Source: Tannerellaceae bacterium | GTDB taxonomy: Bacteria > Bacteroidota > Bacteroidia > Bacteroidales > Tannerellaceae | Direction of reading: 5' to 3' | Assembly: GCA_036654795.1 (NCBI GenBank) | Contig: JAVVRI010000002.1 | Span: forward strand, 1 to 47,786 | Length of the DNA: 47,786 nt | Translations under genes and position numbers: made by a program | Part shown: piece after piece, positions 21,928 to 37,224 of the stretch | Position numbering within the stretch: position 1 is the first letter of the stretch | Layout of the letters: each line of letters begins with the position of its first letter | Notes under the pieces: model-generated | Told to the model about the DNA's origin: nothing | Database searches by the model: none | Seen by the model: only the letters and a program-made list of their open reading frames with translations

Positions 21928-22066
21928 GCATAATAGTATATAGGCAAAAAGGTAAAACATCCTATCTTTTTCATTAAATTTTAGCGTGGTTGCTCTCTAT
22001 CCAATGGGGATGTTAAATTAATTAGTGTATGCTATACAACACACTTAACGTATTTTTGCATACTTC

Positions 22067-22099
22067 TTGCACATCTTTAATCGTCTGCTCTTATATTTG
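22067..22099 (+). promoter_or_regulatory. Candidate promoter of the IclR-headed cluster
   Basis: TATATTTG (22092-22099) is a perfect -7 box. A TTG at 22067-22069 lies 22 bp upstream. The ATG is 27 nt downstream. Confidence 0.45.
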
Positions 22100-22105
22100 A
22101 TATAA

Positions 22106-22126: not shown

Positions 22127-22936
22127 ATGGAAAGCACTGTGTTAAATGTGGAAAAGACGGATGAAAGCTATAAGGTGCCTAATCTGGAAAAAGGTATCGC
22201 TGTGCTGGAGTATTTGTCGCTCCATCCAGCAGGAGAAACTTTGCAGGAAATTAAGTCTGTGCTCGATATATCCCAAACAACTGCCTACCGTATATTAAAT
22301 ACGTTGGTTCGTTTGAATTATCTATTGTATAATGAAGACACCAAGCGTTACAGCCTTTCTCGCAAGATGCTTACGCTGGGTTTCCGGTCGCTGAATGAAC
22401 ATAATTTGCTTGAAACTGTTTTGCCTCGTTTACGCGATTTACGTGATGCTGTAAAGGAAACAGCTTGTTTCGGTGTGCTGGGAAATGAAAAGGGGATTTT
22501 TATTGAACAGGCGCAAGGACACCATACTTTTCGTTTTGTGCTTTCTCCCGGCAAACCGTTCGATTTGCATTGTTCTGCTCCCGGCAAAGCCATCATGGCT
22601 TACCTCCCGAACACAGTGCGCGATCGCTATCTTTCTATCATGGAGTTTACTCCTTATAATAGCCGCACGATTACTACCCAAGAAGCCTATTTGAAAGAAC
22701 TAGAACAGGTGCGCAAGCTTGGTTATTCGATGGATAACGAGGAGGAGCTGAATGGCGTGATTTGCATTGGTGCGCCGATTTTTAATTATACCGGTTACCC
22801 GTGCGGTGCTATTTGGATATCAGGTCCGAAAGATCGTCTGACGAAGGAGGTAATCCGCGCTTCTTCCCAGCAGATAAAAGAGGTTGCTAATACTATTTCT
22901 ACGGAATTAGGTTACGGTAAAATATATAAGAAATAA
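22127..22936 (+). CDS. IclR-family transcriptional regulator
   Basis: 269 aa. N-terminal wHTH LEKGIAVLEYLSLHPAGETLQEIKSVLDISQTTAYRILNTLVRLNYL. The C-terminal IclR effector domain carries RTITTQEAYLKELEQVRKLGYSMDNEEELNGVICIGAPIF. Confidence 0.85.
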   Translation: MESTVLNVEKTDESYKVPNLEKGIAVLEYLSLHPAGETLQEIKSVLDISQTTAYRILNTLVRLNYLLYNEDTKRYSLSRKMLTLGFRSLNEHNLLETVLPRLRDLRDAVKETACFGVLGNEKGIFIEQAQGHHTFRFVLSPGKPFDLHCSAPGKAIMAYLPNTVRDRYLSIMEFTPYNSRTITTQEAYLKELEQVRKLGYSMDNEEELNGVICIGAPIFNYTGYPCGAIWISGPKDRLTKEVIRASSQQIKEVANTISTELGYGKIYKK

Positions 22937-22955
22937 CACACAATACACTAGTATC

Positions 22956-24734
22956 ATGAACACACGAAAATATATAAGAACACAGTTGATTACGGCCTGC
23001 TTGATTGGCTTGTCTGTTGCTTTTGCAGCGGCGGGCAATCCTCCATTGTTTACTACGGACGTGGTGCTGAATGCGAAAGGGGAGATGCTTTTTGCACAAA
23101 AAGGTACAAAACGGATAGATGTTTTTTCAACAGACGGAAAAACATTGTTGCGTTCTTATCCGCTGGACGAAGCTCCTACGGGTATTCTTTTGGATGGAGA
23201 CAAGGCGTATGTAACCACCTTTGGCTCTACAGGGCATTTGCAGATTCTGTTGTTGGAGACGGGTAGGGTAGAGGCTTCCATCCATACTGGCTCCGGCTCC
23301 TGTCACCCGATGTTTGGGGTGGACAAGAAAAAAATCTATGTCTGCAACCAGTTTGATAACAATGTGGTAGAAGTGGATTTGGCTCAGCGTAAAGTGGTGC
23401 GTAGTGCCAAGGTGCTGCGCGAACCCAAATCGGCTGTGCTTAGCAAAGATGGCAAATATATGTTTGTGCCCAACTTCCTGCCTGCCCAGCGTGCGGATTT
23501 GGATGTGGTCGCTGCGGCCGTCTCGGTTATTAAAATGGATGACTTCACTAAGGTAAAAGATATTCCGTTGGCAAATGGTAGCAATGCTTTGCGTGGTATT
23601 TGTATCACGCCGGATGGGAAGTATATTTATGTATCCCATAATTTGGGACGTTTCACCGTTCCGACCTCGCAGTTGCAACAAGGATGGATGAACACGAGTG
23701 CATTTAGTGTGATCGATGTCGCTGCTCAGTCGTTTGTCGGAGCCGTTCTGGTGGATGAGCCGGATCGTGGTGCAGCCGGTATATGGAGCATCGCTTGTAA
23801 CAACGAAAAGATATTTATCAGCCATAGTGGTACGCATGAGATTAGCGTGATTGATCATCAAGCTATGCTCGAACGGTTCCTTGCATATAAGGATAAAAGC
23901 CGTTTGGATTATGATTTGAACTTTCTATACGGTTTGCGTGAACGAATACCGGTTAGCGGTAATGGTCCGCGTTGTCTGCTTCTGGCAGGCAATCAACTGA
24001 TTGTTCCTACTTACTTTGCCGATGTGCTCAATGTGATGGATATTCAAACAAACGTAATGAAGTCTGTCGAGTTGAATCCCGGTCGTACGGAAACAGAGGA
24101 ACAGAAAGGTGAAAAATATTTTAATGATGCGATGAACTGCTTTCAAGGCTGGCAGAGTTGTAACGGATGCCATCCCGGCGATGCGCGTACCGATGGGATG
24201 AACTGGGACTTGATGAATGATGGTGTGGGTAATTCGAAAAACTGTAAAAGTATGCTTTATAGCCATGTTACGCCGCGTAACATGATTTCCGGTATTCGCG
24301 CTTCGGCTGAATTGGCTGTACGTGCCGGATTCAAATTTATCCAATTTTATGAAGTTTCTGAGGAGCAAGCCGCCGCGGTGGATGCCTACATGAAGGCTTT
24401 GCGCCCTGTGCCCAGTCCTTACTTGGTGAACGGTGAATTGTCGGACAAGGCAAAAGAGGGACGTAAGATATTTGATAAGCTCAAGTGTGGCGAGTGTCAT
24501 AGCGGTCCTTACTTTACCGACCTAAAGATGCACCGTATTGGTGAAAACGTGGAGTTCGAAGAGGGATGGGATACCCCTACGTTGGTTGAAGTATGGCGCA
24601 CGGCTCCCTACCTGTTTAATGGTCGGGCAGCCACGATGGAAGAGGTGTTTAGCGTTCATAAACACGGCATCGAAAAGAAGCGGGTTTCAAATAAAGAGAT
24701 AGAAGCATTAACAGAATATGTAAATTCACTTTAA
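22956..24734 (+). CDS. Secreted fusion of a beta-propeller (YVTN-like repeats) with a di-haem cytochrome c peroxidase/MauG-like domain
   Basis: 592 aa with a signal peptide. Repeated GK.(I/M)(Y/F)V... blades are present. Two CXXCH sites occur: CNGCH at nt 24159-24173 and CGECH at nt 24486-24500. The second lies in the CCP-typical context CGECHSGPYFTD...WDTPTLVEVWRTAPYLFNGRAATMEEV. Confidence 0.75.
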   Translation: MNTRKYIRTQLITACLIGLSVAFAAAGNPPLFTTDVVLNAKGEMLFAQKGTKRIDVFSTDGKTLLRSYPLDEAPTGILLDGDKAYVTTFGSTGHLQILLLETGRVEASIHTGSGSCHPMFGVDKKKIYVCNQFDNNVVEVDLAQRKVVRSAKVLREPKSAVLSKDGKYMFVPNFLPAQRADLDVVAAAVSVIKMDDFTKVKDIPLANGSNALRGICITPDGKYIYVSHNLGRFTVPTSQLQQGWMNTSAFSVIDVAAQSFVGAVLVDEPDRGAAGIWSIACNNEKIFISHSGTHEISVIDHQAMLERFLAYKDKSRLDYDLNFLYGLRERIPVSGNGPRCLLLAGNQLIVPTYFADVLNVMDIQTNVMKSVELNPGRTETEEQKGEKYFNDAMNCFQGWQSCNGCHPGDARTDGMNWDLMNDGVGNSKNCKSMLYSHVTPRNMISGIRASAELAVRAGFKFIQFYEVSEEQAAAVDAYMKALRPVPSPYLVNGELSDKAKEGRKIFDKLKCGECHSGPYFTDLKMHRIGENVEFEEGWDTPTLVEVWRTAPYLFNGRAATMEEVFSVHKHGIEKKRVSNKEIEALTEYVNSL

Positions 24735-24776
24735 AAACAAAGACGGGCTAATACTGTTAGTACCTCCAAAAGGAAT

Positions 24777-25871
24777 ATGAATTATTGCGAAAAGATACAT
24801 TATAATATATATATTGCCAAGAAAGCAGACTTTTTGACGATGGTCGATGAATTGTTGGCTCAGATACCCGAGAATGAATCGCTTTTGCGGTTAGCGTTTT
24901 TTGGTACACCGAGTAGTAATGAGGAGTATGTTGATCGGCGCGTTTTATTACGTGAAAAGATACGTCGCCGGTATGGCAATCATGAACCCGTGTTGAGTTA
25001 TGTATCTCAGCCACCACTTCATGCAACATTGATATTGGAGGTGCATAGTTATATCCCTGACGAAGATGATCATATAACCTATAAGAGCCTGCGGGGTTTT
25101 CCGTATGTGTTATTAGAAAACAGCGAAGGGCGGTTCCTTTTTGCAGGAGGCTTTCATGGGGATGTAATCAATTTCGCGGTGGAACAGCAGTCGATCGAAG
25201 TGTTTCGACTCGTTGCCGAAGTGATGCGTCGTGAAGGTTTCCCGATTAATAGCATTATTCGCCAATGGAACTACATCGAACAAATCACTCGTTTTGATGG
25301 CGAGAACCAGCACTATCAGACCTTTAATAATGCAAGAGGTGACTATTATGCTATGACGGGATGGCCGGATGGATATCCGGCTGCAACAGGTATTGGGGCA
25401 AATCTGGGTGGTATTCTAGTTGATCTTGATGCTGCAGTTTTTAAGGATTCAACTTGTTTCGCTACGCCGATAGATAATAAATTGCAAGTAGCAGCTCATG
25501 CTTATTCGGAACAAGTTCTGGCATCTGCTCGTCATCGTAAAGCAACGCCGAAATTCGAGCGCGCCAAGAGCATGACTTTTGGGGATCGGAGGTTGGTCTA
25601 TATTTCCGGTACGGCGGCCATTCGGGGAGAAGAAAGTTTGATTGGAGTAGGACTGGCGCGCCAGCTACACATTACGATGGAAAACATCGACCAACTGATT
25701 GGTCAGGCGCGTCTCACGATGCTTAGAGTTTATCTGAAAGAACCCTCTTTTTATGAAGAGGCAGAGGACTTGCTCGAAGCCTATCATTTGGGAATACCCA
25801 TATCTTATATGTGGGCTGACGTATGTCGTGATGAATTGCTTATTGAAATTGAAGGTATAGCTATTGAATAA
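24777..25871 (+). CDS. FkbO/Hyg5-type chorismatase-like protein (YjgF/RidA-fold C-terminus)
   Basis: 364 aa. IRQWNYIEQITRFDGENQHYQTFNNARGDYY and VYISGTAAIRGEES...ITMENIDQLI...LLIEIEGIA match my recollection of the FkbO/Hyg5/XanB2 family. At minimum it contains a RidA-like domain. The start could also be an internal Met (MVDELL). Confidence 0.5.
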   Translation: MNYCEKIHYNIYIAKKADFLTMVDELLAQIPENESLLRLAFFGTPSSNEEYVDRRVLLREKIRRRYGNHEPVLSYVSQPPLHATLILEVHSYIPDEDDHITYKSLRGFPYVLLENSEGRFLFAGGFHGDVINFAVEQQSIEVFRLVAEVMRREGFPINSIIRQWNYIEQITRFDGENQHYQTFNNARGDYYAMTGWPDGYPAATGIGANLGGILVDLDAAVFKDSTCFATPIDNKLQVAAHAYSEQVLASARHRKATPKFERAKSMTFGDRRLVYISGTAAIRGEESLIGVGLARQLHITMENIDQLIGQARLTMLRVYLKEPSFYEEAEDLLEAYHLGIPISYMWADVCRDELLIEIEGIAIE

Positions 25872-25903
25872 ATAAATTTTACTAACATATAAACAAAGAG
25901 AAA

Positions 25904-26641
25904 ATGAGAAAAGGATTAAATGTGAAAACAATGGTAATGGGGATGTTATTATTCTCCATGGTGGCTTGCACTGGCAAGACAAATGGTACGGCTGATTCAG
26001 CCGCATGTGCTGATTCGACACAATGTGCCGGATGTACTACAGATAAATCTAACTGTAAAAATAATAAAGAGATGACTTACACTAAAAAGTACACAAACGC
26101 CGACTTCTACAAGGACGGCAAGTTTAATCAGGAAGTAGCCATGCAGGCTTACAAGGATATGTTCGAATTTTACGGCGTTCCTTTTACTGAGTTAATGGCG
26201 AAAGACATGTGGGTAACAGACTTTGGTTTGGGCGATTTCGAAAACGTAGGTATGGGTGGTATCTTCTGGGTAAACGATTCAGAATACAAGTATTTCGCAC
26301 ATGCTATCTATCTGTTGCCTAACCAAATGATACCCGAACATGCGCACGTAAAAACAGCGTTTCCTGCCAAACATGAATCATGGATGGTTGAAAAAGGCTG
26401 GGTCTATAACTTCTCTGAAGTGGGCGACGAAACGCCAAATGCACCTGCAATTCCTGCCGGTCATGGTCCTATCAAGAGCAAAAACTTCACTGTACAGAAG
26501 GTGGGCGACGTGCTTCGTTTGAAGAAATTGGAAACATTCCACTTTATGATGGCAGGTCCCGAAGGAGCTGTGGTTGACGAGTGGGCATGTTATCACGACA
26601 ACGCAGGTCTGCGCTTTACAAACGCAAAGGCAGCACTTTAA
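25904..26641 (+). CDS. Lipoprotein with a Cys-rich linker and a cupin domain resembling D-lyxose/D-mannose ketol-isomerases
   Basis: 245 aa. Lipobox LFSMVAC|TGK. Linker ...AACADSTQCAGCTTDKSNC. Cupin metal-ligand pattern PEHAHV...KHESW...FHFM. Confidence 0.45.
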   Translation: MRKGLNVKTMVMGMLLFSMVACTGKTNGTADSAACADSTQCAGCTTDKSNCKNNKEMTYTKKYTNADFYKDGKFNQEVAMQAYKDMFEFYGVPFTELMAKDMWVTDFGLGDFENVGMGGIFWVNDSEYKYFAHAIYLLPNQMIPEHAHVKTAFPAKHESWMVEKGWVYNFSEVGDETPNAPAIPAGHGPIKSKNFTVQKVGDVLRLKKLETFHFMMAGPEGAVVDEWACYHDNAGLRFTNAKAAL

Positions 26642-26658
26642 TTCATATCTCATAAAAT

Positions 26659-26699
26659 CGCCGGCAGACATTCCCTACTAAGGGGATTGTCTGCCGACG
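26659..26699 (+). terminator. Long imperfect hairpin after the cupin gene (no U-tract)
   Basis: CGCCGGCAGACATTCCCT / AGGGGATTGTCTGCCGACG give about 16 pairs with 2 mismatches and 1 bulge around a 4-nt loop. It is followed by TTAAAAAC rather than a T-run. Confidence 0.4.
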
Positions 26700-26728
26700 T
26701 TAAAAACAACCTTAGTAAGTAATAACAC

Positions 26729-29700
26729 ATGAATAAATATAACTTATTAGTGTCGCTTTTCTTATCCTCCTCTTTTCTGGTATCGGCTGTGCCAAAGCAG
26801 AAGACGGTGGAGACGTGGATTGATGCTTCTGTAAAAGCGAAATCAGAATTGCGCGCACAACTTCAGAAGTCAGGTATGCCTGTTCTGTCTAAATGGATGA
26901 AGCATAAAAGTAATGCTGCTCCCTTTGTTGTAGACCTTAAGGGAGTAGATAAGTTGGTGCTGATCACTTCCGGAGGCCCTGACGGTTCCGAATACGATCA
27001 AGCTGTATGGGGTAACGCCCGTTTAATAGCAGCCGATGGTACTTCGGTGTGGTTGGATGAAATTCCTTTTGAATATGGCATAGCTGGTTGGGCTAAACCC
27101 AAGATGAATATCAATGCCTATGATAAAGAAATTTACATCGGTGGAAAACTCTATCCGCATGGTGTGTTTTGCCATGCGAACGGTACGCTGGTCTATCCTG
27201 TAAACAATAAATATGTACGCTTTGAAGCCGAAGTAGGTATAGAAGATACCTCTAGCGGAGGGAGCGTATTCTTTCAGGCGCTGAATGTGTTTCCTAAAAC
27301 GATTGGGGATGCGTTGATCCAGAAATATCCGAGTCAGATCGGTTTGTTGAGTGCCGGTATGGATGGATTGGATACTTGGTTGATTACACCCGATGCTTCT
27401 GTTGAAAAACAGGCTGTAGCGGACGTAGTAGCCAAACTGAAAGATGGCTCTTATTTTAAAAATGCCATGCAGACGATTGACGGAGAGAAAGATCTGAACG
27501 CGCAAATACGTAAATACCTAGAACTGTTTGAAAAGGTACAGGATGTATATACAGTACAATGCGACTTGCAGTGGCTCAATATGGATGCTATCAAGTTGGC
27601 CTTCGACGATATGAAGAAACAGAAAGGCTTTGATGTTGCCAAATACGAACCGATGTACAAAGAATTATTGCAGCTTCAGCAGAAAGGCTTTACCGGTATC
27701 TATAAAGGGGATGCCACAGCATTGGCTGATGCCCGTAAGGCATTGGATAATAAGCGTTCGATATTACTTGGCAACCCGTTGCTGAATGGCGATAAGGTTG
27801 TAGCTACTCACTTTAAATTGGGATCGCGTGCCCGCCAAGCTATGGCTCCCGATTTGGGCACACAGGCTAACAACTGGAGTAATCAAGAGTCTGCTCGTCG
27901 TATCGGTTTTGATGCTGAGATTGTGGAACTGAGTAATCTGCGCGGTGACATCAAAACACGTAGCGTATACAAAGCACCGAATGCCTCTTCTATTGCTGAC
28001 CTGCGTCTGCATTGGGATGGCGACCGGATGATGTTTACACAAACAATGCCCGACAAACGTTGGAATGTATTTGAAGTGAAGATGGATGGAACCGGATGCA
28101 AACCGTTGATTGAAAACGAAGAGCCGGATCTGGAATTCTATGACGGAACTTATCTACCCGACGGACGCATTATTGCAAACTCGAATATTGGTTATCAGGG
28201 TGTTCCCTGCGTAAGTGGTGACGACCCTGTCGGCAACATGGTGCAGTACGATCCGAAGAGCAAGACGCTGCGTCGTTTGACTTTCGATCAGGATGCCAAC
28301 TGGAATCCGGTAGTGATGAATAACGGTCGTGTGATGTATACTCGTTGGGAGTACACGGACTTGACGCACTACTATTCACGTATCATTATGCACATGAATC
28401 CGGACGGAACGGAAAATAAAGCGCTTTATGGTAGTGGCTCTATGTTCCCGAATAGTACGTTCGACGTACAACCTCTTCCGGGACATTCTTCTGCTTTTGT
28501 AGGTGTTATTTCCGGACACCACGGTATTGCTCGCTCGGGGCGTCTGATCGTATTCGATCCGACAAAAGCTCGTAAGGGAACAGCTGGTATTGTACAGGAG
28601 ATTCCTTATCGTAATCGTCCAGTAGTAGAGTTAATAAAAGATGAATTGGTAAATGGCGTATGGCCTCAGTTCATCAAACCGACTCCGCTAAATGACAAAT
28701 ACTTCTTAGTTGCTGCGAAGTTAGATCAGCAATCCTTGTGGGGTATCTATTTGGTGGATATCTATGATAATGTAACTTGTCTGATGCAGGCAGAAGGCGA
28801 AGGTTTTATCAGTCCCGTTGTACTGCGCAAGACGGCAACACCTCCGGCCATTCCAGACCGTGTGAAGCTGAATGACAAGGAAGCTACCGTCTTTATTCAG
28901 GACATTTACGAAGGAGAGGGTTTGATGGGTGTGCCTCGTGGTATCGTCAAATCACTCCGTCTGCATGCTTATGAATATGCTTATGTGAAGACGACTTCCG
29001 ATCATAACTGGCATGGTATTCAGAGTGGGTGGGACATCAAGCGTCAATTGGGTACGGTACCTGTTGAGTCGGATGGTTCTGTGATCTTTAAAGTTCCGGC
29101 CAATACGCCTATCTCCATTCAACCGTTGGATGAAAACGGAGTTGCCATTCAATGGATGCGTAGCTGGTTTACAGCACAACCGGGTGAAGTAGTTTCTTGC
29201 GTAGGTTGCCATGAAGATCAAAATCAGATCCCGATGCCGAAGCGTGTCATTGCTTCTCAGAAGGCTCCTTCCCGATTGGCTACCCCTGAAGGTGGTGTCC
29301 GTTCGTTCACATTCGACCTCGAGATACAACCTATTTTGGATCGTGCTTGTATTGCCTGCCATAATGGTGAAGGTAAAGCGTTCGATATGCGTGGTGGTAA
29401 GAAGGATAAGCGTGGTTATGGTTCATCCTATCTAAACCTTCATCCTTACGTTCATCGTCAAGGAGGAGAAGGAGATATGGTCGTATTGCAACCTTACGAA
29501 TATCATCCCAATACCAGCGAATTGGTTCGTATGTTGAAGAAGGGTCATCACAATGTGAAACTGACCGATGCCGAATGGTTGAAACTTTATAACTGGATTG
29601 ATTACAATGCTCCGGATAAGGGTTATTTCAATGCCAATAAGATCACAGACTTCCCTTATAAGGGTTTCGATCAGATTGCTCGTCGTAAGGAGTTGACCGA

Positions 29701-30724
29701 CAAATATGCCGGTGGTGCCGGGGTCGATTGGAAAAAAGAAATCTCCGACTATGCCGGATACTTGAAGAGTAAAGGAGAAATCAAACCCGTAATGCCTGAA
29801 AAACTACCTCCTGTAAAGGAAAAGACAGTGAAGGTAAAGGGCTGGCCATTTGACGCAACTGCTATTAAAGCAATGTTAGCGAACGAAAAGGAAACTCGCA
29901 AAGAGATAGAACTGATGCCGGGTGTTAAAATGACATTTGTACGCATCCCTGCCGGTACGTTTGTTATGGGTAGTTATCAGGGTGAACCTGACGCTTATCC
30001 TATATCCAAAGTGAAGATTGCAAAATCTTTCTGGATGGCGGAAATGGAAGTAACGAACGAACAGTTCCGTACGATCTATCCCGACCATGACAGCCGCTTT
30101 GTCGATCAGATGTGGAAAGACCACGTTGTGCAAGGTTATCCTGCCAACAATCCGGAGCAACCAGTTATCCGCGTAAGCTATAACGACGCTATGGAATATT
30201 GCAAGAAACTGAGTGAAAAGACAGGTCTCCACATTACGCTTCCTACCGAGGCACAATGGGAGTGGGCTTGTCGCGCAGGTAGTGCTGAAGACTTCTGGTA
30301 TGGTAACATGAATGCTAATTTTGGCAAGTTCGAAAACCTGGCCGATGTTACGACACTCAAGTTTGCTGTAAGCGGTGTTAATCCGCAGCCGATGCCAAAG
30401 ACATCAAGCTGGTACAAGTACTATACATATCTTCCGAAAGAAGAAGGTGTTGATGATGGAAATCTGATTCAGGTAAATTCGAAAGCCTATCAGGCTAATC
30501 CCTTCGGATTGTACAGTATGCATGGTAATATTGCCGAGTGGACTCGTTCTGATTACGCGTCTTATCCGTACTCTGAAAAAGTTAAAACTCCTTCAGAATA
30601 CAAAGTTGTGCGCGGAGGTTCGTATATTGAGCGCCCGAAGTACTCTACGGCTTATTCCCGCAAGGCATATTATCCGTATCAACGCGTGTTCAACGTGGGC
30701 TTCCGGGTAGTGATTGAAGATTAA
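26729..30724 (+). CDS. 1331-aa secreted multidomain protein: NPCBM-like carbohydrate-binding module, helical region, TolB/PD40-like propeller, two CXXCH haem-c motifs (HzsA-middle-domain-like region), and a C-terminal FGE-sulfatase-fold domain
   Basis: Signal peptide MNKYNLLVSLFLSSSFLVSA. NPCBM-like segment YIGGKLYPHGVFCHANGTLVYPVNNKYVRFEAEVGIEDTSSGGSVFFQ. CVGCH lies at nt 29198-29212 and CIACH at nt 29348-29362. The FGE-fold covers about nt 29905-30721, with FWMAEMEVTNEQF, GLYSMHGNIAEWT, VVRGGSY and NVGFRVV. Confidence 0.7.
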   Translation: MNKYNLLVSLFLSSSFLVSAVPKQKTVETWIDASVKAKSELRAQLQKSGMPVLSKWMKHKSNAAPFVVDLKGVDKLVLITSGGPDGSEYDQAVWGNARLIAADGTSVWLDEIPFEYGIAGWAKPKMNINAYDKEIYIGGKLYPHGVFCHANGTLVYPVNNKYVRFEAEVGIEDTSSGGSVFFQALNVFPKTIGDALIQKYPSQIGLLSAGMDGLDTWLITPDASVEKQAVADVVAKLKDGSYFKNAMQTIDGEKDLNAQIRKYLELFEKVQDVYTVQCDLQWLNMDAIKLAFDDMKKQKGFDVAKYEPMYKELLQLQQKGFTGIYKGDATALADARKALDNKRSILLGNPLLNGDKVVATHFKLGSRARQAMAPDLGTQANNWSNQESARRIGFDAEIVELSNLRGDIKTRSVYKAPNASSIADLRLHWDGDRMMFTQTMPDKRWNVFEVKMDGTGCKPLIENEEPDLEFYDGTYLPDGRIIANSNIGYQGVPCVSGDDPVGNMVQYDPKSKTLRRLTFDQDANWNPVVMNNGRVMYTRWEYTDLTHYYSRIIMHMNPDGTENKALYGSGSMFPNSTFDVQPLPGHSSAFVGVISGHHGIARSGRLIVFDPTKARKGTAGIVQEIPYRNRPVVELIKDELVNGVWPQFIKPTPLNDKYFLVAAKLDQQSLWGIYLVDIYDNVTCLMQAEGEGFISPVVLRKTATPPAIPDRVKLNDKEATVFIQDIYEGEGLMGVPRGIVKSLRLHAYEYAYVKTTSDHNWHGIQSGWDIKRQLGTVPVESDGSVIFKVPANTPISIQPLDENGVAIQWMRSWFTAQPGEVVSCVGCHEDQNQIPMPKRVIASQKAPSRLATPEGGVRSFTFDLEIQPILDRACIACHNGEGKAFDMRGGKKDKRGYGSSYLNLHPYVHRQGGEGDMVVLQPYEYHPNTSELVRMLKKGHHNVKLTDAEWLKLYNWIDYNAPDKGYFNANKITDFPYKGFDQIARRKELTDKYAGGAGVDWKKEISDYAGYLKSKGEIKPVMPEKLPPVKEKTVKVKGWPFDATAIKAMLANEKETRKEIELMPGVKMTFVRIPAGTFVMGSYQGEPDAYPISKVKIAKSFWMAEMEVTNEQFRTIYPDHDSRFVDQMWKDHVVQGYPANNPEQPVIRVSYNDAMEYCKKLSEKTGLHITLPTEAQWEWACRAGSAEDFWYGNMNANFGKFENLADVTTLKFAVSGVNPQPMPKTSSWYKYYTYLPKEEGVDDGNLIQVNSKAYQANPFGLYSMHGNIAEWTRSDYASYPYSEKVKTPSEYKVVRGGSYIERPKYSTAYSRKAYYPYQRVFNVGFRVVIED

Positions 30725-30744
30725 AAAATGATGAACAGATAGTT

Positions 30745-30781
30745 GCCGGAGCGGGGAGGGTTTCCCCTTTACCGTTCCGGC
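30745..30781 (+). terminator. Terminator-like hairpin followed by a T-rich stretch
   Basis: Outer stem GCCGGAGCGG (30745-30754) pairs with CCGTTCCGGC (30772-30781), including one G-U pair. An inner GGG/CCC stem lies around a TTT loop. GATTTATCTTTT follows. Confidence 0.45.
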
Positions 30782-30815
30782 GATTTATCTTTTAAGATTG
30801 AACTAAAACGGTCAA

Positions 30816-33266
30816 ATGAAAACAACGCTCAACAGAATTATTTCCTCTTATGTGACGACTGTCGTCTTACTTTTAGTCTATGCCCTTGTCTTGGCATTGG
30901 CCACTTTTATAGAAAAGTATCACGGTACACCGGCGGCTAAAGCGATGGTTTACTACTCACCTTTATTCTTTCTGTTGCATTTTCTGCTAGTTCTTAATTT
31001 TATCTCAGCCCTTTTAAAGCACCAGTTACTTAAAAAACGTAAATGGGGATTGATGCTGACTCACCTCTCTTTTATTATTATTCTATTAGGAGCTTTGGTC
31101 TCTTTCCTTTTTGGGGAAGAGGGCATCCTTCATCTCCGTGAAGGAGAAAGCAGCGACCGTATAGCTGTTCATGCTGACGGTAAAACAACCTTTCACACGC
31201 TGCCTTTCAGTGTGGAGCTTGTCAAATTTAATTTAACCCGTTATCCCGGTTCGGCTAGTCCGTCATCGTATGAAAGCGAATTGTTGGTGCATGTGGACGG
31301 GACGACACGCAATGAACGAGTATTTATGAATAACATCCTTGACGTAAAAGGATATCGTTTCTTTCAGGCCTCTTATGATACGGACGAACAGGGGACTGTT
31401 CTCTCTGTAAATCGTGACGTAGCCGGAAGAAATATAACGTATACCGGTTACCTATTATTGGTGATCGGATTTATCTTTTGTTTTATTGGGAAAAACTCCC
31501 GTTTTATGAAGTTGAGCCGTCGGCTGAAAGAGCTGCGCGCTTCTGCTTCGGTTGTGGGGACACTTCTGTTGTTACTAATATCCACGGTTTCGCTGAGTGC
31601 GAAGGAAAGTGCTTCGCCTATGTTAGACGCTGTATTAAAGTATCAGATTAGTCCGGCTCATGCCGCCACCTTTGGTGCGCTGCCGGTACAGTTGGGTAAC
31701 GGACGTATGGTTCCGGTTAATACTTTCTCCTCCGAAATTCTTCGTAAATTACATAAATCAGAACGAATCGGTACGATCAACTCCGATCAATTCTTGTTAA
31801 GCCTTTTGGCTATGCCGGATATGTGGATGCGGGTGCCATTCATTGCTAACGGCAATCAAGAGCTCAGCTCGTATTACGATCTGAGCAAGGATGAATGCGC
31901 CTACATTGAGCTTTTCGATAGCAACGGTAACTACAAGTTACAAGAGAAGTTGGACGAGGCTTACAATAAAATGCCTGCCGATCGTAATCGCTTCGACAAA
32001 GACCTGCTCAAACTGGACGAGCAAATCAACATACTCCACCAACTGATGAATGAGCAAATGCTAAACCTCTTTCCGCGCGAAGAGGCGCCAGACCATAAAT
32101 GGTATGCTCCGGGTGATGATTTGTCCGATTTCAATGGTAAGGATTCGATGTTTGTTTCCCGCATTATGGACTGGTACCTGTCAGAGGTACAGACTGCTTT
32201 GCAGAGTGGCGAATGGTCGAAAGCGGATGAGGTCGTCGGCATGATCTCTACCTACCAACAGGCAAAAAACAAGACGCTAGATATTAGTCCGAAAAAGATA
32301 CAAGCCGAATTGAAATATAACAAAATGGAGGTGTTCCGTTATTGTAAGATTGGCTACTTGATTCTAGGCGGGCTCTTGCTGACACTTTCGTTCGTTATGC
32401 TTTTCCGGCAGCGGAGGTGGATGAAGGGAATGATCTGGGTGCTGGGTATTGGTGTGCTGATCGTTTTCCATTTCCATATGTTGGGGATGGGGATGCGATG
32501 GTATATTGCTGGTTATGCCCCCTGGAGTAATTCGTATGAAACGATGGTTTATGTGGCTTGGGCTACTATTTTGGGCGGTTTGCTGTTTGTGCGTCGTAGC
32601 ACGATCACTTTCTCGCTCGCCACATTGTTTGGAGGGATTATTCTCTTTGTTTCCGGTCTGAGTTGGATGGATCCGCAGATCAATCAGCTGGTGCCGGTGC
32701 TGAAGTCGCCTTGGCTGATGTTTCATGTAGCTGTCATTGTGGCGGCTTATGGTTTCTTTGGCATCAGTTGCCTGATCGGGTTGACGAATCAAGTAATGAT
32801 GTGCATCGGTGGTAAGAAAAGTCGCGCCTTATTGCGCAACCGCATACAAGAATTGACGATTGTAAACGAAATGTCCCTATTGGTCGGCTTGGCGTTGATG
32901 ACGATTGGCACCTTCCTTGGAGCTGTCTGGGCAAACGAGTCGTGGGGACGTTATTGGGGCTGGGATCCGAAAGAGACTTGGGCATTAATTACAATGGTGC
33001 TCTATGCCGTGGTTATTCATTTGCGCTTAGTGAAGCGCTGGGACAATCCGTGGTTGCTTAACTTGGGTTCAGTCGTAGTCTTCTTCTCTGTGCTGATGAC
33101 CTTCTTTGGTGTCAATTATTTATTGAGCGGCATGCACTCCTACGGTCAAAGTGATGTGGCGAACAGTTTGTTTGTCTATCTTTACGTGGCCGCAGGCTTG
33201 GTGGTAGTATTGGCCTGCTTTAGCCGCAAGGGATGGTTCAAACTTGAAGATAAAGAACAGAAATAA
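30816..33266 (+). CDS. ccsBA: Fused system II cytochrome c synthase CcsBA (ResB/Ccs1-like N-terminus + CcsA C-terminus)
   Basis: 816 aa. The N-terminus has TM helices and a large soluble loop as in ResB. The C-terminus carries the Trp-rich haem-handling motif WANESWGRYWGWDPKETWALI and multiple TM helices. Confidence 0.8.
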   Translation: MKTTLNRIISSYVTTVVLLLVYALVLALATFIEKYHGTPAAKAMVYYSPLFFLLHFLLVLNFISALLKHQLLKKRKWGLMLTHLSFIIILLGALVSFLFGEEGILHLREGESSDRIAVHADGKTTFHTLPFSVELVKFNLTRYPGSASPSSYESELLVHVDGTTRNERVFMNNILDVKGYRFFQASYDTDEQGTVLSVNRDVAGRNITYTGYLLLVIGFIFCFIGKNSRFMKLSRRLKELRASASVVGTLLLLLISTVSLSAKESASPMLDAVLKYQISPAHAATFGALPVQLGNGRMVPVNTFSSEILRKLHKSERIGTINSDQFLLSLLAMPDMWMRVPFIANGNQELSSYYDLSKDECAYIELFDSNGNYKLQEKLDEAYNKMPADRNRFDKDLLKLDEQINILHQLMNEQMLNLFPREEAPDHKWYAPGDDLSDFNGKDSMFVSRIMDWYLSEVQTALQSGEWSKADEVVGMISTYQQAKNKTLDISPKKIQAELKYNKMEVFRYCKIGYLILGGLLLTLSFVMLFRQRRWMKGMIWVLGIGVLIVFHFHMLGMGMRWYIAGYAPWSNSYETMVYVAWATILGGLLFVRRSTITFSLATLFGGIILFVSGLSWMDPQINQLVPVLKSPWLMFHVAVIVAAYGFFGISCLIGLTNQVMMCIGGKKSRALLRNRIQELTIVNEMSLLVGLALMTIGTFLGAVWANESWGRYWGWDPKETWALITMVLYAVVIHLRLVKRWDNPWLLNLGSVVVFFSVLMTFFGVNYLLSGMHSYGQSDVANSLFVYLYVAAGLVVVLACFSRKGWFKLEDKEQK

Positions 33267-33297
33267 CCTATATAAAAACATTTAAAACAAAGTAATC

Positions 33298-33612
33298 ATG
33301 AGAACATTTAATCACGTAGGTATTCCTACAACTGAAAGTAAAGCAGGAGCAGTCTATAACGAAGGTCTGAGTGTCTGGCTGACTGATTATAGTAAAAGTA
33401 CAAACCGCATTGAATTTTTAAAGTTTGAGGCAGGTAGCTGCATGCCTGAATTGATTCAAACAACAGCTCATTTGGCTTATACCGTGCCTTGTCTCAAAAC
33501 AGAACTGGAAGGTAAAAAGGTCATCTTTGGCCCGGCTGTATGCGACGAGCATCTGACGATTGCTTTTATCGAAGAAGAGGGTATTGCTATTGAAATTATG
33601 GAAATTAAATAA
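33298..33612 (+). CDS. Small VOC (glyoxalase/bleomycin-resistance fold) family protein
   Basis: 104 aa. The FNHVGIPT start, HLAYTV and IAFIEEEGIAIEIMEI fit the paired beta-alpha-beta-beta-beta module pattern. Confidence 0.5.
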   Translation: MRTFNHVGIPTTESKAGAVYNEGLSVWLTDYSKSTNRIEFLKFEAGSCMPELIQTTAHLAYTVPCLKTELEGKKVIFGPAVCDEHLTIAFIEEEGIAIEIMEIK

Positions 33613-33635
33613 TAAAAAAAAGGAGGAATCACATT

Positions 33636-34652
33636 ATGTCAGCTATTAAAACAAAATTCATTAACGAACCGGATCAGATCACACCCGAATTGCTGGAAGG
33701 TTATGTGTTAGCTTATAAAGATAAAGTAAAATTGGCTAGTGAGAATATCGTCGTACGCGTACAGCCGAAGAGCGAAGACAAAGTGGCTGTTGTTACTTTG
33801 GGCGGATCTGGACACGAACCTGCCTTGAGCGGTTTCGTTGGCGAAGGTATGTTGGACTGTTCCGTAGTGGGCGATGTTTTTGCTGCTCCAGGTGCACAAC
33901 GTCTTTTTCAGGCTTTGCAACTGATGAAGCGCGAAGCTGGTATCCTGTTGGTGGTGCTTAACCATTCCGGCGACATTATGAGTGCAAACATGGCTTGCCA
34001 GTTGGCTGCCCGCGTAGGTATCAAAGTAAAGCAAATCATTACACACGATGACATTAGTGCTGGTGTAGGTACGGACAATAACGATCGTCGTGGTCTGGCT
34101 GGTTGCGTTCCGTTATATAAAATATTGGGCGCTGCCGCTGAAGAAGGCAAATCATTGGACGAACTGATCGAAATAGGCGAACGTTTCAATAACAAATTGG
34201 CTACACTGGCTGTGGCTATGCGCTCATGTACACACCCGCAGAATGGTGGTATCATTACCGACCTGCCCGAAGGCGTGATGGAGATTGGTATGGGACAGCA
34301 TGGTGAAGGTGGTGGCGGTTGCCAACCTCTTGTGTCGGCTGACGCTACTGCCACCCAGATGATCGATTTGCTTTGTCAGCAATTGAAACCGGCAGCCGGA
34401 GACAAGATGCTTCTTGTCATCAATGGCGTAGGTGCTACGACCCACATGGAGCTAAACATCATCTTCCGTAAAGCTTATATGGAGCTTGAAGCCCGTGGCC
34501 TCGAAGTTGCAGAAAGCCGTATTCAGGAGATCTTGACCGTACAGGAACAGGCTGGTTTCCAGATGATCCTTGCCGGACTGGATGCTGATCATATCGACTA
34601 TTTGAAGAACAAACGCTCCGATGCTCCTTACTGGACTGTTATCGGCAAATAA
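33636..34652 (+). CDS. dhaK: DhaK-type (dihydroxyacetone/ketose kinase) substrate-binding subunit
   Basis: 338 aa. LGGSGHEPALSGFVGEGMLDCSVVGDVFAAP and EIGMGQHGEGG are DhaK signatures. An AGGAGG sequence lies 9 nt upstream of the ATG. Confidence 0.85.
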   Translation: MSAIKTKFINEPDQITPELLEGYVLAYKDKVKLASENIVVRVQPKSEDKVAVVTLGGSGHEPALSGFVGEGMLDCSVVGDVFAAPGAQRLFQALQLMKREAGILLVVLNHSGDIMSANMACQLAARVGIKVKQIITHDDISAGVGTDNNDRRGLAGCVPLYKILGAAAEEGKSLDELIEIGERFNNKLATLAVAMRSCTHPQNGGIITDLPEGVMEIGMGQHGEGGGGCQPLVSADATATQMIDLLCQQLKPAAGDKMLLVINGVGATTHMELNIIFRKAYMELEARGLEVAESRIQEILTVQEQAGFQMILAGLDADHIDYLKNKRSDAPYWTVIGK

Positions 34653-34666
34653 TAAATAATAACGCT

Positions 34667-35281
34667 ATGAAACAATTAACAACAGATGCTTTCAAAACCA
34701 TGCTTCAGCATGCGTTGACACAGATTAAGGCTCGCGAAGATGAGTTCTCAAAGTTGGATGCCGTGATTGGTGACGGCGACCATGGTATGGCCATCGTTTC
34801 TGCTTTTTCCGTAGCTGTGGAAGCAGCAGAGAAAGGAACAGAGTTTAAGGCCATGCTTAATGATATGGGCTTTGGTGTTATGCTGGCAACGAGTGGCTCA
34901 ACCAGTACCTTAATGGGTGCCTTCTTCTTGGGTATGAGCGATCATGCTGCTGGTACGGAGCTGGATGCTACTGCTGTAAAGGCGATGTTTGCTGGTGGAC
35001 TAGCAAACATACAACAACAGACCAAAGCCCAGAAGGGGGATAAAACGATGATGGATGCTCTTATTCCTGCTATCGAAGCAATGGAAGCTTGTACGTCGGA
35101 CGATGTGAAAGAGATACTGACCGCCGGTGCCACGGCTGCTCTTGCCGGAGCCGAAGCTACTATACAAATGAAGGCAAATTTCGGACGCGCGCGCAACTAT
35201 GGTGAACGCTCTATCGGTTATGCGGACAGCGGCGCTACTTCTTGGAGTTGCATGCTGGCCTCTTTCGCTGAAGCTTTTTGA
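34667..35281 (+). CDS. dhaL: DhaL-type nucleotide-binding subunit of the DhaK/DhaL kinase
   Basis: 204 aa. LDAVIGDGDHGMA (Mg-nucleotide-binding Asp cluster) and GDKTMMDALIPA are present. Confidence 0.85.
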   Translation: MKQLTTDAFKTMLQHALTQIKAREDEFSKLDAVIGDGDHGMAIVSAFSVAVEAAEKGTEFKAMLNDMGFGVMLATSGSTSTLMGAFFLGMSDHAAGTELDATAVKAMFAGGLANIQQQTKAQKGDKTMMDALIPAIEAMEACTSDDVKEILTAGATAALAGAEATIQMKANFGRARNYGERSIGYADSGATSWSCMLASFAEAF

Positions 35282-35327
35282 CCTCAGATAGCAATTAAAA
35301 TAATAAACAATAAAAACAACTTAAGTA

Positions 35328-36200
35328 ATGGCAGATTTAGATGATTTAAGAGAAGGTAACGACTTTGGTGTAGGAGTATCCTCTCAGAACCAGAGTTTTC
35401 ATGTAAAGGGTGCGGCCAACCAAGCTTGGGGCATGAAGGATCGCTTGTCGCGCATATTCAATCCCGAAACAGGTAAGGCCGTTATGCTGGCTTTCGACCA
35501 TGGTTTCATTATGGGGCCTACCTCCGGATTGGAGCGTATTGACCTCAATATTGTACCTCTGATTGAGTATGCTGACTGCTTGATGTGTACGCGTGGTATT
35601 CTGCAATCTACTATTCCCGCAAACGTAAACAAGCCGATTTGTCTTCGTTCTGATGCTGGTACGACGATTTTGACAGAGCTAAACAACAACGTGCTAATCG
35701 ATATTGAAGATGCTATACGCATGAACGTATCTGCTATGGCTGTTATGTTGGCTATTGGCGATCCTGCCTTCGAAGCTACAACAGTTGCCAATCTGTTTAA
35801 AGCAGCAGACAAAGGAGCTCGTTACGGTATTCCTGTTATGGGAGTAACTGCAGTAGGCAAGCAAATGGCTCGTGACGCCCGCTACTTTGGTTTGGCCTCA
35901 CGTATTTGTGCTGAGAACGGTGCAAACATCGTGAAGACTTACTATTGCGAAGGCTTTGAGAAAGTAGCTGCTGCCTGCCCCGTGCCGGTAGTAATTGCCG
36001 GAGGTAAGAAATTGCCCGAAAAGGAAGCGCTGGAGTTATGCTACAACGCCATCAATGACGGTGCTGCCGGTGTGGACATGGGACGTAATGTATTCCAAAG
36101 TGCTCATCCTGTTGCTATGATTCAAGCAGTACGTGCCGTGGTACACGACGGATTAACACCCGACCAAGCCATGGAGTTATTCCGCGACATCGCAGAATAA
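35328..36200 (+). CDS. Class I aldolase of the DhnA/FbaB family, LsrF-like (LsrF is 3-hydroxy-5-phosphonooxypentane-2,4-dione thiolase)
   Basis: 290 aa. These segments align along the whole length with my recollection of E. coli LsrF: MADLDDLREGNDF..., WGMKDRLSRIFNPETGKAVMLAFDHG, GLERIDLNIVPL, ADCLMCTRGIL, GANIVKTYY, CPVPVVIAGGKKLPEKEALE and GVDMGRNVFQSAHPVAM. Confidence 0.7.
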   Translation: MADLDDLREGNDFGVGVSSQNQSFHVKGAANQAWGMKDRLSRIFNPETGKAVMLAFDHGFIMGPTSGLERIDLNIVPLIEYADCLMCTRGILQSTIPANVNKPICLRSDAGTTILTELNNNVLIDIEDAIRMNVSAMAVMLAIGDPAFEATTVANLFKAADKGARYGIPVMGVTAVGKQMARDARYFGLASRICAENGANIVKTYYCEGFEKVAAACPVPVVIAGGKKLPEKEALELCYNAINDGAAGVDMGRNVFQSAHPVAMIQAVRAVVHDGLTPDQAMELFRDIAE

Positions 36201-36291: not shown

Positions 36292-36339
36292 TTCGCTTAT
36301 TCTATTATTTAACCATACATAATAAAACAAACACATACC

Positions 36340-37224
36340 ATGAATAAAGCTTATATGTTATTAATTGCTGCCCTACTGCTATTGGTCGGTACCTCTTGCC
36401 AACCTAAGGCAGAAAAGTTATTGCTGGGTGGTTCCGGTTGGAATAAAATAGTAATCATCGACAAAGAGACAAAGGCTATTGAATGGGAGCATCCCATGGA
36501 AGCTGGTTGGGAATGTAACTCCGTAGCCGCTACGACGGACGGGAACATCCTTTTCTCATACGCCAAAGGTGCCAAACTAATCACAAAGGATCATAAAGAG
36601 CTTTGGAATATACCTGCCCCTGAAGGTGCAGAGATGCAGACCGCCGCTATCCTGGCAGACGGCAACTTTTTGCTGGCTTGGTGCGGCCATCCGGCTACCA
36701 TTATGGAAGTATCGCCTAAGGGTGAAATGCTGAAAAAGGTAGAATACGAAACTGGTGTAGAAGCACCTCACGCACAGTTCCGCCACGTAAGCAAGGCGGC
36801 TAACGGCAATTATTTGATGCCTATCTTTGCCACTTCCGACGTGCGCGAAATAAGTCCCGAAGGTACATTGGTTAAGACGATCGCCCTCGAAGGTACTCCT
36901 TTCTGTATTGTTCCGTTAGCGAATGGAAACTCGCTGGCTGCTTGTGGCGATGCGCATAGCTATGTGGAGTTGGATGCAAACGGTGCGATTGTACGTAAAG
37001 TGAGCGGTACTGATATTGAAGGCACTTCTCTTTACTTTGTTGCCGAACTGTTACCCCTTGCGGATGGCAGTCTATACGTATGTAACTGGCAAGGACATGG
37101 AGGCGATGCTGCCGCAGGCACTTTCCCCCAATTGATCGAAGTGGACAAAACCGGCAAGATGATCTGGAGCCTAAACGACAATGCCGCTTTTGGCATGATA
37201 TCGGCTATCTGTCCGGTGAAGTAG
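36340..37224 (+). CDS. Lipoprotein, predicted small beta-propeller (family not identified)
   Basis: 294 aa. Lipobox LLLVGTSC|QPK. Repeated motifs of the type DGN(I/F)L...G....(V/I) suggest blades. Confidence 0.45.
   Translation: MNKAYMLLIAALLLLVGTSCQPKAEKLLLGGSGWNKIVIIDKETKAIEWEHPMEAGWECNSVAATTDGNILFSYAKGAKLITKDHKELWNIPAPEGAEMQTAAILADGNFLLAWCGHPATIMEVSPKGEMLKKVEYETGVEAPHAQFRHVSKAANGNYLMPIFATSDVREISPEGTLVKTIALEGTPFCIVPLANGNSLAACGDAHSYVELDANGAIVRKVSGTDIEGTSLYFVAELLPLADGSLYVCNWQGHGGDAAAGTFPQLIEVDKTGKMIWSLNDNAAFGMISAICPVK

Follow-up and report, generated by a model that had tools for sequence, protein, structure and literature searches.

Two closely spaced genes of a Tannerellaceae bacterium, lying in a 47,786-nucleotide stretch of contig JAVVRI010000002.1 (assembly GCA_036654795.1; this whole stretch is called the window), encode haem proteins with export signals, here named A and BC, which are the Bacteroidales form of the non-anammox hydrazine-synthase-like pair, a form not previously described. 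Neither A nor BC is a hydrazine synthase (HZS); both are true but catalytically divergent relatives of that enzyme. The genes belong to a run of 13 open reading frames (ORFs) on the + strand (22127-40185, intergenic gaps of 14-139 nt). Because they are located in this conserved sugar-catabolism operon, A and BC most likely oxidise a carbohydrate-derived compound and would not make hydrazine. An initial sequence-only reading had placed a three-gene system at 22956-33266; the three ORFs are real at these positions and on the + strand, but the interval is too narrow, since the conserved unit runs from an IclR-type regulator gene (22127) to a gene for a glycoside hydrolase of family GH130 (40185).

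BC is a fused homologue of HZS subunits beta and gamma. The protein starts with a hydrophobic signal segment, followed by a YVTN-type propeller and two CXXCH haem-attachment motifs. As a single sequence, BC matched both corresponding chains of the HZS structure (PDB 5c2v_B, HZS-beta, 1e-14; 5c2v_C, HZS-gamma, 5e-14) and the NCBIfam model hydrazine_BC (6.5e-25). With a profile made from a 10-sequence BC alignment that draws on loci of several phyla (profile A3), the matches reached 6.9e-37 for 5c2v_B (residues 70-349 of 352) and 2.1e-28 for 5c2v_C (residues 42-313 of 314), whereas bacterial cytochrome c peroxidase (CCP) structures reached just ~1e-9 with the same profile (3o5c, 1.8e-9; 1iqc, 8.4e-9). 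The best Foldseek match of the BC model was again 5c2v_B (E = 1.1e-20, TMt 0.82). The beta+gamma-like architecture that had been proposed from the sequence alone is thus borne out by profile A3 and by Foldseek. Both CXXCH motifs of BC and both of A are invariant among aligned homologues from several phyla, and the four motifs are therefore not chance occurrences. BC His570 is also invariant and aligns with the His of the MHG motif in HZS-gamma.

The core of A (aa 380-1061) is a true relative of HZS-alpha. A begins with a signal segment and has a TolB-like propeller; its CXXCH motifs are at aa 824 and 874. A profile from a 23-sequence alignment of the core (A2) found 5c2v_A (HZS-alpha) as its top PDB match (5.2e-26), in a collinear alignment that takes in the middle domain, the C-terminal haem domain and, weakly, the propeller. 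AlphaFold2 models were built from alignments A1 and A4; the model of the A core (pLDDT 87.8, pTM 0.87) retrieved 5c2v_A as top Foldseek match (E = 8.9e-21, TMq 0.58, ~750 columns), the next matches being TolB propellers that cover less than half of it. The suggestion of an alpha-like exported protein with a propeller and two CXXCH motifs is confirmed by PF18582, profile and Foldseek alike, and the domain similarity of the pair to HzsA and HzsBC was upheld by both profile and structure comparison. A His940 (KGHHNV) is invariant and lies one position off the residue that aligns with the distal ligand His772 of HZS-alpha; as His940 and His570 are both retained, the relay-type haems are plausibly bis-His, as in HZS. 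The A-core family is large, with 5,079 clusters (50% identity) at E <= 1e-3 and 1,248 at E <= 1e-30, and proteins of the A/BC kind go at present only by the database names 'SUMF1/EgtB/PvdO family nonheme iron enzyme' and 'YncE family protein'.

Each protein also has family-invariant residues without HZS counterpart, namely Cys494 (28208-28210), RWEY (aa 539-542) and His597-His598 in the A propeller, and Cys395 (24138-24140; C-x6-C-x2-C-H), His437 and Met443 in BC. They could serve as a further link or ligand to haem, or else bind a metal or a cofactor.

The features specific to HZS catalysis are those that the pair lacks. Bit scores lie far below the equivalog cut-offs of NCBIfam (hydrazine_alpha, 43.4 vs 800; beta, 58.6 vs 560; gamma, 56.3 vs 625; BC, 87.4 vs 1250). 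In HZS, Tyr591 ligates haem alpha-I, with the CXXCH His587 diverted to a Zn site, while gamma Cys165 makes a third covalent link to haem gamma-I and Asp168 sits in the distal pocket (PMC12758564, PMC12607021). No Tyr occurs in the 30 residues that follow CXXCH motif 1 of A (the A2/HZS alignment ends at the motif), so that the Tyr591-ligated haem alpha-I is absent. Gamma Cys165 (chain residue 126) falls in an HZS-specific insertion ('sldrvcg') missing from the BC profile, gamma Asp168 aligns with Phe or His in the BC family, and the position of gamma His144 is Ile444 in BC, variable in the family and neither His nor the Trp of CCP/MauG. Pfam annotation of window ORFs of >= 150 aa (ORFs nested antisense in a longer annotated gene excluded) found nothing of the N cycle, be it hydrazine dehydrogenase, HAO or nitrite reductase. 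The earlier caution that the chemistry need not be hydrazine formation was therefore well placed, HZS-specific active-site residues being missing; its suggestion of chemistry on small N-species finds no contextual support, the neighbours being sugar-catabolic genes.

Outside its core, A carries further domains. The N-termini of alpha-like representatives hold NPCBM, F5/8-type-C, CBM6, Laminin_G_3 or SASA domains, that is, glycan-binding or glycan-esterase modules, and a C-terminal domain resembling the formylglycine-generating enzyme (FGE) is found in all 31 close A-core representatives (31/31). In A, this domain is closest in the PDB to PvdO (1e-17). Its segment GGSYIERPKYSTAY aligns with GGSYM(C)HRSY(C)YRY of human FGE, Cys336 being replaced by Glu and Cys341 by Ser. 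Because both catalytic Cys are replaced, the domain is not a formylglycine-generating enzyme; true FGE activity was rejected on this ground.

A one-genome-per-species scan yielded 32 loci encoding an A core, and HMM (hidden Markov model) searches found BC in the DNA retrieved around eight of them. All four Bacteroidota loci are BC-positive (a Bacteroides metagenome-assembled genome (MAG), a Bacteroidales MAG, Carboxylicivirga and a Parabacteroides sp.), and the other four belong to Phycisphaerae, Planctomycetes, Opitutaceae and Hydrogenedentota. A and BC, 2 kb apart in the window, are adjacent in L001-L005, L014, L019, L022, L024, L027, L028, L031 and L039 (L numbers denote the compared loci). 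The expectation that the two families co-occur beyond this genome is borne out: the genes are adjacent in every Bacteroidota locus examined and in five other loci, but most non-Bacteroidota alpha-like genes have no BC within 10 kb. The two proteins also diverge together, the pairwise identities of A core and BC at eight loci being correlated (r = 0.91 over 28 pairs, which are not independent). Four non-Bacteroidota loci of different phyla group together for both A and BC, which is in keeping with the two genes being inherited or transferred together. The copies in Bacteroides and Parabacteroides share only 66-76% DNA identity with the operon, which gives no support to a recent horizontal transfer among gut genera.

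Pairing is not always one to one. Two alpha-like paralogues stand with a single BC in a Planctomycetes MAG (L019:9443-19523), a Hydrogenedentota MAG (L024:9620-18170) and an unassigned metagenome contig (L039:3855-11869). The last of these, found from the BC side and of Planctomycetota-type context, has its two alpha-like genes directly upstream of BC, one with the FGE-like domain and one without. These arrangements suggest that one BC may serve several alpha-like proteins. At L038:9417-11890, another context of Planctomycetota type found from the BC side, BC is preceded by just a 154-aa ORF resembling the alpha C-terminal haem domain (E = 1.9e-18) and followed by a GH67N-like protein, a GH29 fucosidase and a GH130 protein. 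A second, shorter system was seen in uncultured Parabacteroides sp. UMGS407 (L028:149-10014), with an alpha-like protein of 827 aa that has neither NPCBM nor FGE domain; its gene set comprises a Zn-dependent alcohol dehydrogenase, a DeoC-type aldolase, the alpha-like protein, BC (599 aa), a Mal s 1-like propeller, GH43 and GH2. The 844-aa B. thetaiotaomicron protein WP_011109257.1, listed in the supplement of PMC12758564, may be of this L028 type.

The block is kept in relatives. The window matches a protein of a Tannerellaceae MAG at 100% identity, and the closest cultured relative is Parabacteroides goldsteinii (~81% identity), where the genes are syntenic throughout from IclR to GH130 with a different upstream flank; in Bacteroides salyersiae, synteny extends from IclR through DhaK, to the end of the DNA compared, and the flank differs again. 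Individual members recur in other loci. The IclR gene precedes BC in L001-L005, L027 and L031; the chorismatase/RidA-like gene is also found in L024, L027 and L031; L006, L025, L027 and L031 each have a cupin homologue beside an alpha-like gene, and Tat-like signals are seen on two of these cupins; the Mal s 1-like gene adjoins alpha/BC in L003-L005, L028 and L031; and GH130 also lies near BC in L019 and L038. A and BC bear export signals, as do the cupin and the Mal s 1-like protein, while the cytoplasmic enzymes have none; the membrane proteins of the block are CcsBA and the SSF symporter.

Several of these genes, and their counterparts elsewhere, point to sugars. The LsrF-type protein is 57% identical to E. 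coli LsrF over 287 aa (full length) and keeps Lys203 (IVKTYY vs IIKTYY). The 104-aa protein of the vicinal oxygen chelate (VOC) type has invariant H6, E39, H58 and E99 and, by profile, a weak match to glyoxalase I; as an LsrG homologue it was rejected (BLASTP E = 1.0). DhaK/DhaL and an LsrF-like gene also lie near an alpha-like gene in L007 (Verrucomicrobiota) and L027. A SusC/SusD pair, the hallmark of polysaccharide utilization loci, is directly upstream of the homologous cluster in L005; Pfam annotation of the window ORFs found none in the window. Neighbours include GH29 and an MFS transporter in L027, GH3, an FGGY kinase and a xylose-isomerase-like TIM protein in L031, and GH67N-like proteins, GH29, GH130 and sulfatases in Planctomycetota loci. 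Across 132 neighbour ORFs of non-Bacteroidota loci, the carbohydrate signal is diffuse, with sulfatase as the commonest family (4) and GH43 in two.

The operon also encodes its own fused cytochrome c synthase, and haem attachment is therefore presumably performed by this CcsBA. It matches Pfam ResB (1.4e-20) and Cytochrom_C_asm (7.7e-35), has many hydrophobic segments and shows the WWD motif as WGRYWGWD at aa 710 (32943-32966); its NCBIfam ccsB score (171 bits) is slightly under the cut-off of 188. A fused CcsBA following A on the same strand had been noted from the start, and the arrangement recurs in Bacteroides and Parabacteroides loci, the only loci where CcsBA was found after A. In these lineages, which would make few c-type cytochromes, CcsBA has the look of an addition to the system.

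From these sequence comparisons, we give about an even chance to the reading that A and BC form a periplasmic four-haem oxidoreductase which acts on a glycan-derived sugar and feeds the catabolic operon. A would be the substrate-binding module, with its NPCBM lectin-type domain, its propeller over haem 1 and its PvdO-like domain of FGE fold, and BC would be a CCP/MauG-related di-haem partner that supplies or removes redox equivalents via two low-spin relay haems, as in HZS. The substrate would be neither NO nor ammonium but a sugar derived from glycans, or a small sugar derivative, with fucose, mannose, pentose or DPD-like compounds as candidates (DPD, 4,5-dihydroxy-2,3-pentanedione). Since the operon encodes nothing that is linked to quinols, the co-substrate would probably be H2O2 or another soluble oxidant. 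Through Ccp, E. coli can use H2O2 as electron acceptor under anaerobic conditions, and there are enzymes that oxidise large substrates with peroxide or O2, namely MauG and MbnH (on proteins) and RoxA (on a polymer).

In the route we propose, A/BC, the cupin lipoprotein and the Mal s 1-like propeller would make a keto- or dicarbonyl sugar in the periplasm; the SSF transporter would import it, DhaK/DhaL would phosphorylate it, the glyoxalase-like protein would isomerise the phosphorylated sugar and the LsrF-type thiolase would cleave the product to dihydroxyacetone phosphate (DHAP) and an acyl-CoA, the IclR regulator governing the whole block. Import of a keto- or dicarbonyl product is suggested by the presence together of a Dha-type kinase, a VOC-type protein and an LsrF-type thiolase, by analogy with the processing of phosphorylated autoinducer-2 (AI-2) by LsrG and LsrF. 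If sugar oxidation is correct, a haem-based redox step would be added to anaerobic glycan catabolism, with a hint at the ancestral function from which HZS arose. A broader proposal is more tentative: the A core and FGE-like domain with BC would be a new class of haem-c carbohydrate-active redox enzyme, peroxide-driven or otherwise quinone-independent, for glycan or sugar oxidation or oxidative cleavage in gut anaerobes and in those of the Planctomycetota-Verrucomicrobiota-Chlamydiota (PVC) group, its products entering an unrecognised keto-sugar route (Dha-type kinase, VOC isomerase, LsrF-type thiolase, to DHAP and acyl-CoA). Were this possibility true, carbohydrate oxidoreductases would make up a family far larger than HZS, from which HZS branched off as a specialised member.

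A number of points weigh against the sugar oxidoreductase. Among 11 loci with full 10-kb flanks, BC is nearby in four and absent in seven, and an alpha-like protein therefore does not seem to need a partner encoded beside it. Confidence in the BC model is good for the propeller and low for the haem domain. PVC loci have a mixed set of neighbour families, in genomes where carbohydrate-active genes are frequent in any case. The 13 genes could make up more than one functional unit. Oxidant, substrate and direction of electron flow are pure inference, and we found no biochemical data in the literature on any member of the A/BC family.

Among other explanations, the one that survives best, which we nevertheless hold to be unlikely, makes BC a transient maturase like MauG or MbnH: with peroxide or O2 it would modify A, the cupin or the Mal s 1-like propeller to create a cofactor, the modified partner being the catalyst. 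The BC haem domain does belong to the CCP/MauG superfamily, as weak matches to the structure 6e1c ('Di-heme enzyme') and to models for MauG, the MbnH family and SAM_quin_mod MauG-like proteins show; a shared helper would fit the single BC beside two alpha-like paralogues (L019, L024, L039) as well as the many alpha-like genes without adjacent BC, and the invariant Cys494, His-His pair and RWEY of the A propeller could form the cofactor site. However, BC is far closer to HZS beta and gamma, which are stable subunits in HZS, than to CCP/MauG (7e-37 and 2e-28 vs ~1e-9 or weaker), the position of the bridging Trp of MauG/CCP is the variable Ile444, and A has two invariant haem sites, needless in a mere substrate protein.

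Less probable again is peroxide defence, in which BC would be a periplasmic cytochrome c peroxidase, A its electron donor or an unrelated lectin-like cytochrome, and the sugar genes mere neighbours. Gut anaerobes are exposed to H2O2 near the mucosa, and BC scores 25.3 bits with Pfam CCP_MauG, just under the cut-off of 25.6, in line with its weak matches to the bacterial CCP structures 3o5c and 1iqc. Such a role sits poorly with a gene order that is kept while the flanks differ (13 genes in P. goldsteinii, IclR to DhaK in B. salyersiae), with a block headed by IclR and not by an oxidative-stress regulator, and with the recurrence of the alpha/BC/Mal s 1-like trio beside GH43 and GH2 in L028. 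In addition, the position of the CCP haem Met ligand is Leu in BC (APYLFNG), in an alignment made by eye only.

Slightly weaker still, and improbable in our view, is a non-orthologous route for the catabolism of AI-2 (DPD) or a DPD-like dione by the LsrF-type thiolase, the Dha-type kinase and the VOC protein, the haem proteins merely making or processing a signal-like molecule. The close similarity to E. coli LsrF with its catalytic Lys, an encoded importer, and the presence of a kinase in the place of LsrK and of a protein of metallo-isomerase type in that of LsrG all speak for such a route; set against them are a small protein without LsrG similarity, the absence of LsrB/ACD/R-type genes from the window by Pfam, haem machinery that AI-2 uptake does not need, and glycoside hydrolases and modules of the carbohydrate-binding type that point to glycans. 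Least probable of all is HZS-like N-oxide chemistry (NO to hydroxylamine and/or the condensing or detoxifying of hydroxylamine, NO or hydrazine in the periplasm), which could appeal to the overall homology to all three HZS subunits, the four-haem layout and the RidA-like (imine deaminase-type) domain encoded in the operon, but which is opposed by NCBIfam scores of 43-87 bits against cut-offs of 560-1250, by the missing Tyr591-ligated alpha-I, gamma Cys165 and gamma Asp168, by a window without N-cycle gene, by the predominance of carbohydrate modules and neighbours, and by the same negative conclusion drawn by Hagglund et al. on their homologues (PMC12758564).

Table 1. Genes of the block and sequence features of A and BC (positions in the window).
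Feature	Position	Strand	Basis or remark
IclR-family regulator, heads the block	22127..22936	+	Pfam HTH_IclR and IclR_C 7e-41
BC, secreted 7-bladed propeller + di-haem domain, 592 aa	22956..24734	+	Fused HZS beta+gamma homologue
BC haem motif 1 CNGCH, aa 402-406	24159..24173	+	Aligns with HZS gamma-I motif
BC haem motif 2 CGECH, aa 511-515	24486..24500	+	Aligns with HZS gamma-II motif
Cytoplasmic chorismatase (FkbO/Hyg5)-like protein with RidA-like domain	24777..25871	+	Pfam FkbO_Hyg5-like_N, Ribonuc_L-PSP; PDB 5ag3 7.6e-17
Exported lipoprotein, cupin resembling D-lyxose/D-mannose isomerase	25904..26641	+	PDB 7nzo 3.6e-10, 2y0o 4.4e-8; lipobox MVAC
A, 1331 aa: NPCBM, TolB-like propeller, HZS-alpha middle, C-terminal haem, FGE-like	26729..30724	+	Pfam, profile, AlphaFold2/Foldseek
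NPCBM/NEW2 carbohydrate-binding-type module of A, aa 106-183	27044..27277	+	PF08305 2.2e-22
HZS_alpha middle domain of A, aa 738-829	28940..29215	+	PF18582 1.5e-36
A haem motif 1 CVGCH, aa 824, at end of middle domain	29198-29212	+	His587 of HZS-alpha is aligned with its His828
A haem motif 2 CIACH, aa 874-878, C-terminal haem domain	29348..29362	+	
FGE-sulfatase-like (PvdO-like) domain of A, aa 1069-1328	29933..30712	+	PF03781 3e-42
Fused CcsBA, System II cytochrome c synthase, 816 aa	30816..33266	+	Pfam ResB + Cytochrom_C_asm; NCBIfam ccsB 2.9e-50
Small glyoxalase-I/VOC-like protein, 104 aa	33298..33612	+	No Pfam match; profile A5 to glyoxalase I 3hdp 1.9e-4
DhaK, dihydroxyacetone-type kinase subunit	33636-34652	+	Pfam Dak1 4.7e-95
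DhaL, dihydroxyacetone-type kinase subunit	34667-35281	+	Pfam Dak2 3.3e-36
LsrF-type class I aldolase/thiolase	35328..36200	+	PDB 3gkf 4.6e-108
Exported Mal s 1-like beta-propeller lipoprotein	36340..37224	+	PF22701 1.6e-68; lipobox GTSC
SSF sodium:solute symporter	37275-39158	+	Pfam; kept in P. goldsteinii
Cytoplasmic GH130, last gene of the block	39187-40185	+	Pfam; kept in P. goldsteinii

The cupin is unusual in being an exported protein that resembles aldose-ketose isomerases. Its Cys-rich, low-complexity linker (aa 33-51) is limited to the Bacteroides and Parabacteroides copies, and cupin homologues of other lineages start with twin-arginine-like signals (SRRNAIG, KRRDVLK; L006:12986-13675 and L031:7038-7748). 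Upstream of the IclR start (22050-22100), two matches to TAnnTTTG, the Bacteroides -7 promoter consensus, were read by eye, TATTTTTG and TATATTTG. Scans of the operon for sigma-70 promoters (24 found vs 33 expected from shuffles) and for intrinsic terminators (19 found vs 17 in shuffles) were uninformative for Bacteroidales. The ENA gene calls P0123 and P0124 merge the IclR regulator and BC into products of 830-851 aa; these entries are probably gene-calling or frameshift artefacts, as the two genes are only 19 nt apart in the window.

The GC content of the operon is 0.39-0.50, compared with 0.46-0.51 in the right flank and 0.53-0.59 in a menaquinone cluster upstream (MenF-, MenD-, MenB-, MenC- and MenE-like; 11528-18541, - strand). 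Two ORFs of that cluster (16095-17249 and 17168-18541) share an 82-nt overlap, the second being a HAD (Cof-type) + 4HBT thioesterase fusion and possibly a fused DHNA-CoA (1,4-dihydroxy-2-naphthoyl-CoA) thioesterase. A functional tie between this cluster and the operon, suggested by the chorismatase-like gene, was rejected, the flank being different in P. goldsteinii and B. salyersiae. The far-left genes (1363-9863) are unrelated: they encode a CarboxypepD_reg-like protein, an ECF-type (extracytoplasmic function) sigma factor (2925-3503), a beta-N-acetylglucosaminidase of GH84 + CBM32 type (3596-6112, - strand) and two tandem DUF3857/transglutaminase-like proteins (6137-9863, - strand).

For a long time no relatives of HZS were recognised. 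In 2025, Hagglund et al. (Genome Biol Evol) described HZS homologues of two kinds, alpha-like and fused beta-gamma-like, encoded at the same loci in Planctomycetota, Desulfobacterota and others; they assigned no function to them and found key HZS residues not conserved in the non-anammox homologues (PMC12758564). In that article, Bacteroidota are mentioned in the beta-gamma tree and an alpha-like match of B. thetaiotaomicron is listed in the supplement; NPCBM, FGE, sulfatase and Parabacteroides do not appear in the main text, nor Parabacteroides in the accessible supplements, and the main text and these supplements contain no NPCBM/FGE fusions, dedicated CcsBA or DhaKL/LsrF-type module. Our literature search found no paper that characterises A/BC-type proteins, or in which the form fused to NPCBM and FGE-like domains, a CcsBA dedicated to it or its place in a sugar operon is described. 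The claim of the sequence-only reading that no such system is characterised in Bacteroidales therefore stands as far as this search goes, but as a class, HZS homologues encoded side by side outside anammox bacteria had already been reported (PMC12758564). The HZS-like pair is here found in common human-gut Bacteroidales, with homologue clusters that hold thousands of sequences, and the tightly packed, regulator-headed operon offers a tractable genetic system and a sugar-oxidation hypothesis for a family of at least 1,248 clusters (50% identity, E <= 1e-30).

Compared with the non-anammox pairs of clades I-IV (PMC12758564), A and BC share the alpha-like gene beside a fused beta-gamma-like gene, the canonical alpha-I haem without Tyr and the loss of key HZS residues; the order here is BC, two genes, A. 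Clades I-III have FG-GAP/CRTAC1 and ABC-binding-protein genes, neither of which is in this operon by Pfam, and a Trp at the gamma His144 position, which is the variable Ile444 here; the distal His of alpha-II, reported absent from clade I, appears retained (PMC12758564). With the CCP/MauG/MbnH/RoxA superfamily, the C-terminal half of BC shares two CXXCH motifs in a CCP_MauG-type domain, but this half of BC stands much nearer to HZS-gamma than to any CCP or MauG structure, has a propeller fused to it, does not keep the bridging Trp and scores just under the Pfam cut-off. Among proteins of non-catalytic FGE fold (PvdO, 5HHA; GldK/PorK), PvdO is closest to the C-terminal domain of A, which like PvdO is without the FGE catalytic cysteines. 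PvdO is periplasmic and named dihydropyoverdine dehydrogenase in NCBIfam; the domain of A differs from it in being fused to a di-haem HZS-alpha-like core and in having no pyoverdine context. The E. coli Lsr pathway offers a parallel in its LsrF (57% identity, Lys203) and in the logic of kinase, isomerase-type protein, thiolase and importer; the operon differs from it in having DhaK/DhaL and not the FGGY-type LsrK, a VOC-like protein and not the ABM-fold LsrG, an SSF and not an ABC transporter, and no LsrR or LsrB.

The closest comparison is with HZS of K. stuttgartiensis (PDB 5C2V/5C2W). It has the same alpha domain order and is the sole solved structure that spans the whole A core; its beta subunit, a 7-bladed propeller with a helical insertion, is the best structural match to the BC propeller; its gamma subunit has a di-haem CCP-like domain; and both systems total four c-type haems, A and BC both being exported. 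The differences are an identity of just 15-18%, with NCBIfam cut-offs missed by a factor of more than ten; the fusion of beta and gamma in BC, a fusion that Scalindua also has (PMC12758564); the lack in A and BC of the Tyr591-ligated alpha-I, gamma Cys165 and gamma Asp168; the extra NPCBM and FGE-like domains on A; and a context of sugar catabolism instead of anammox.

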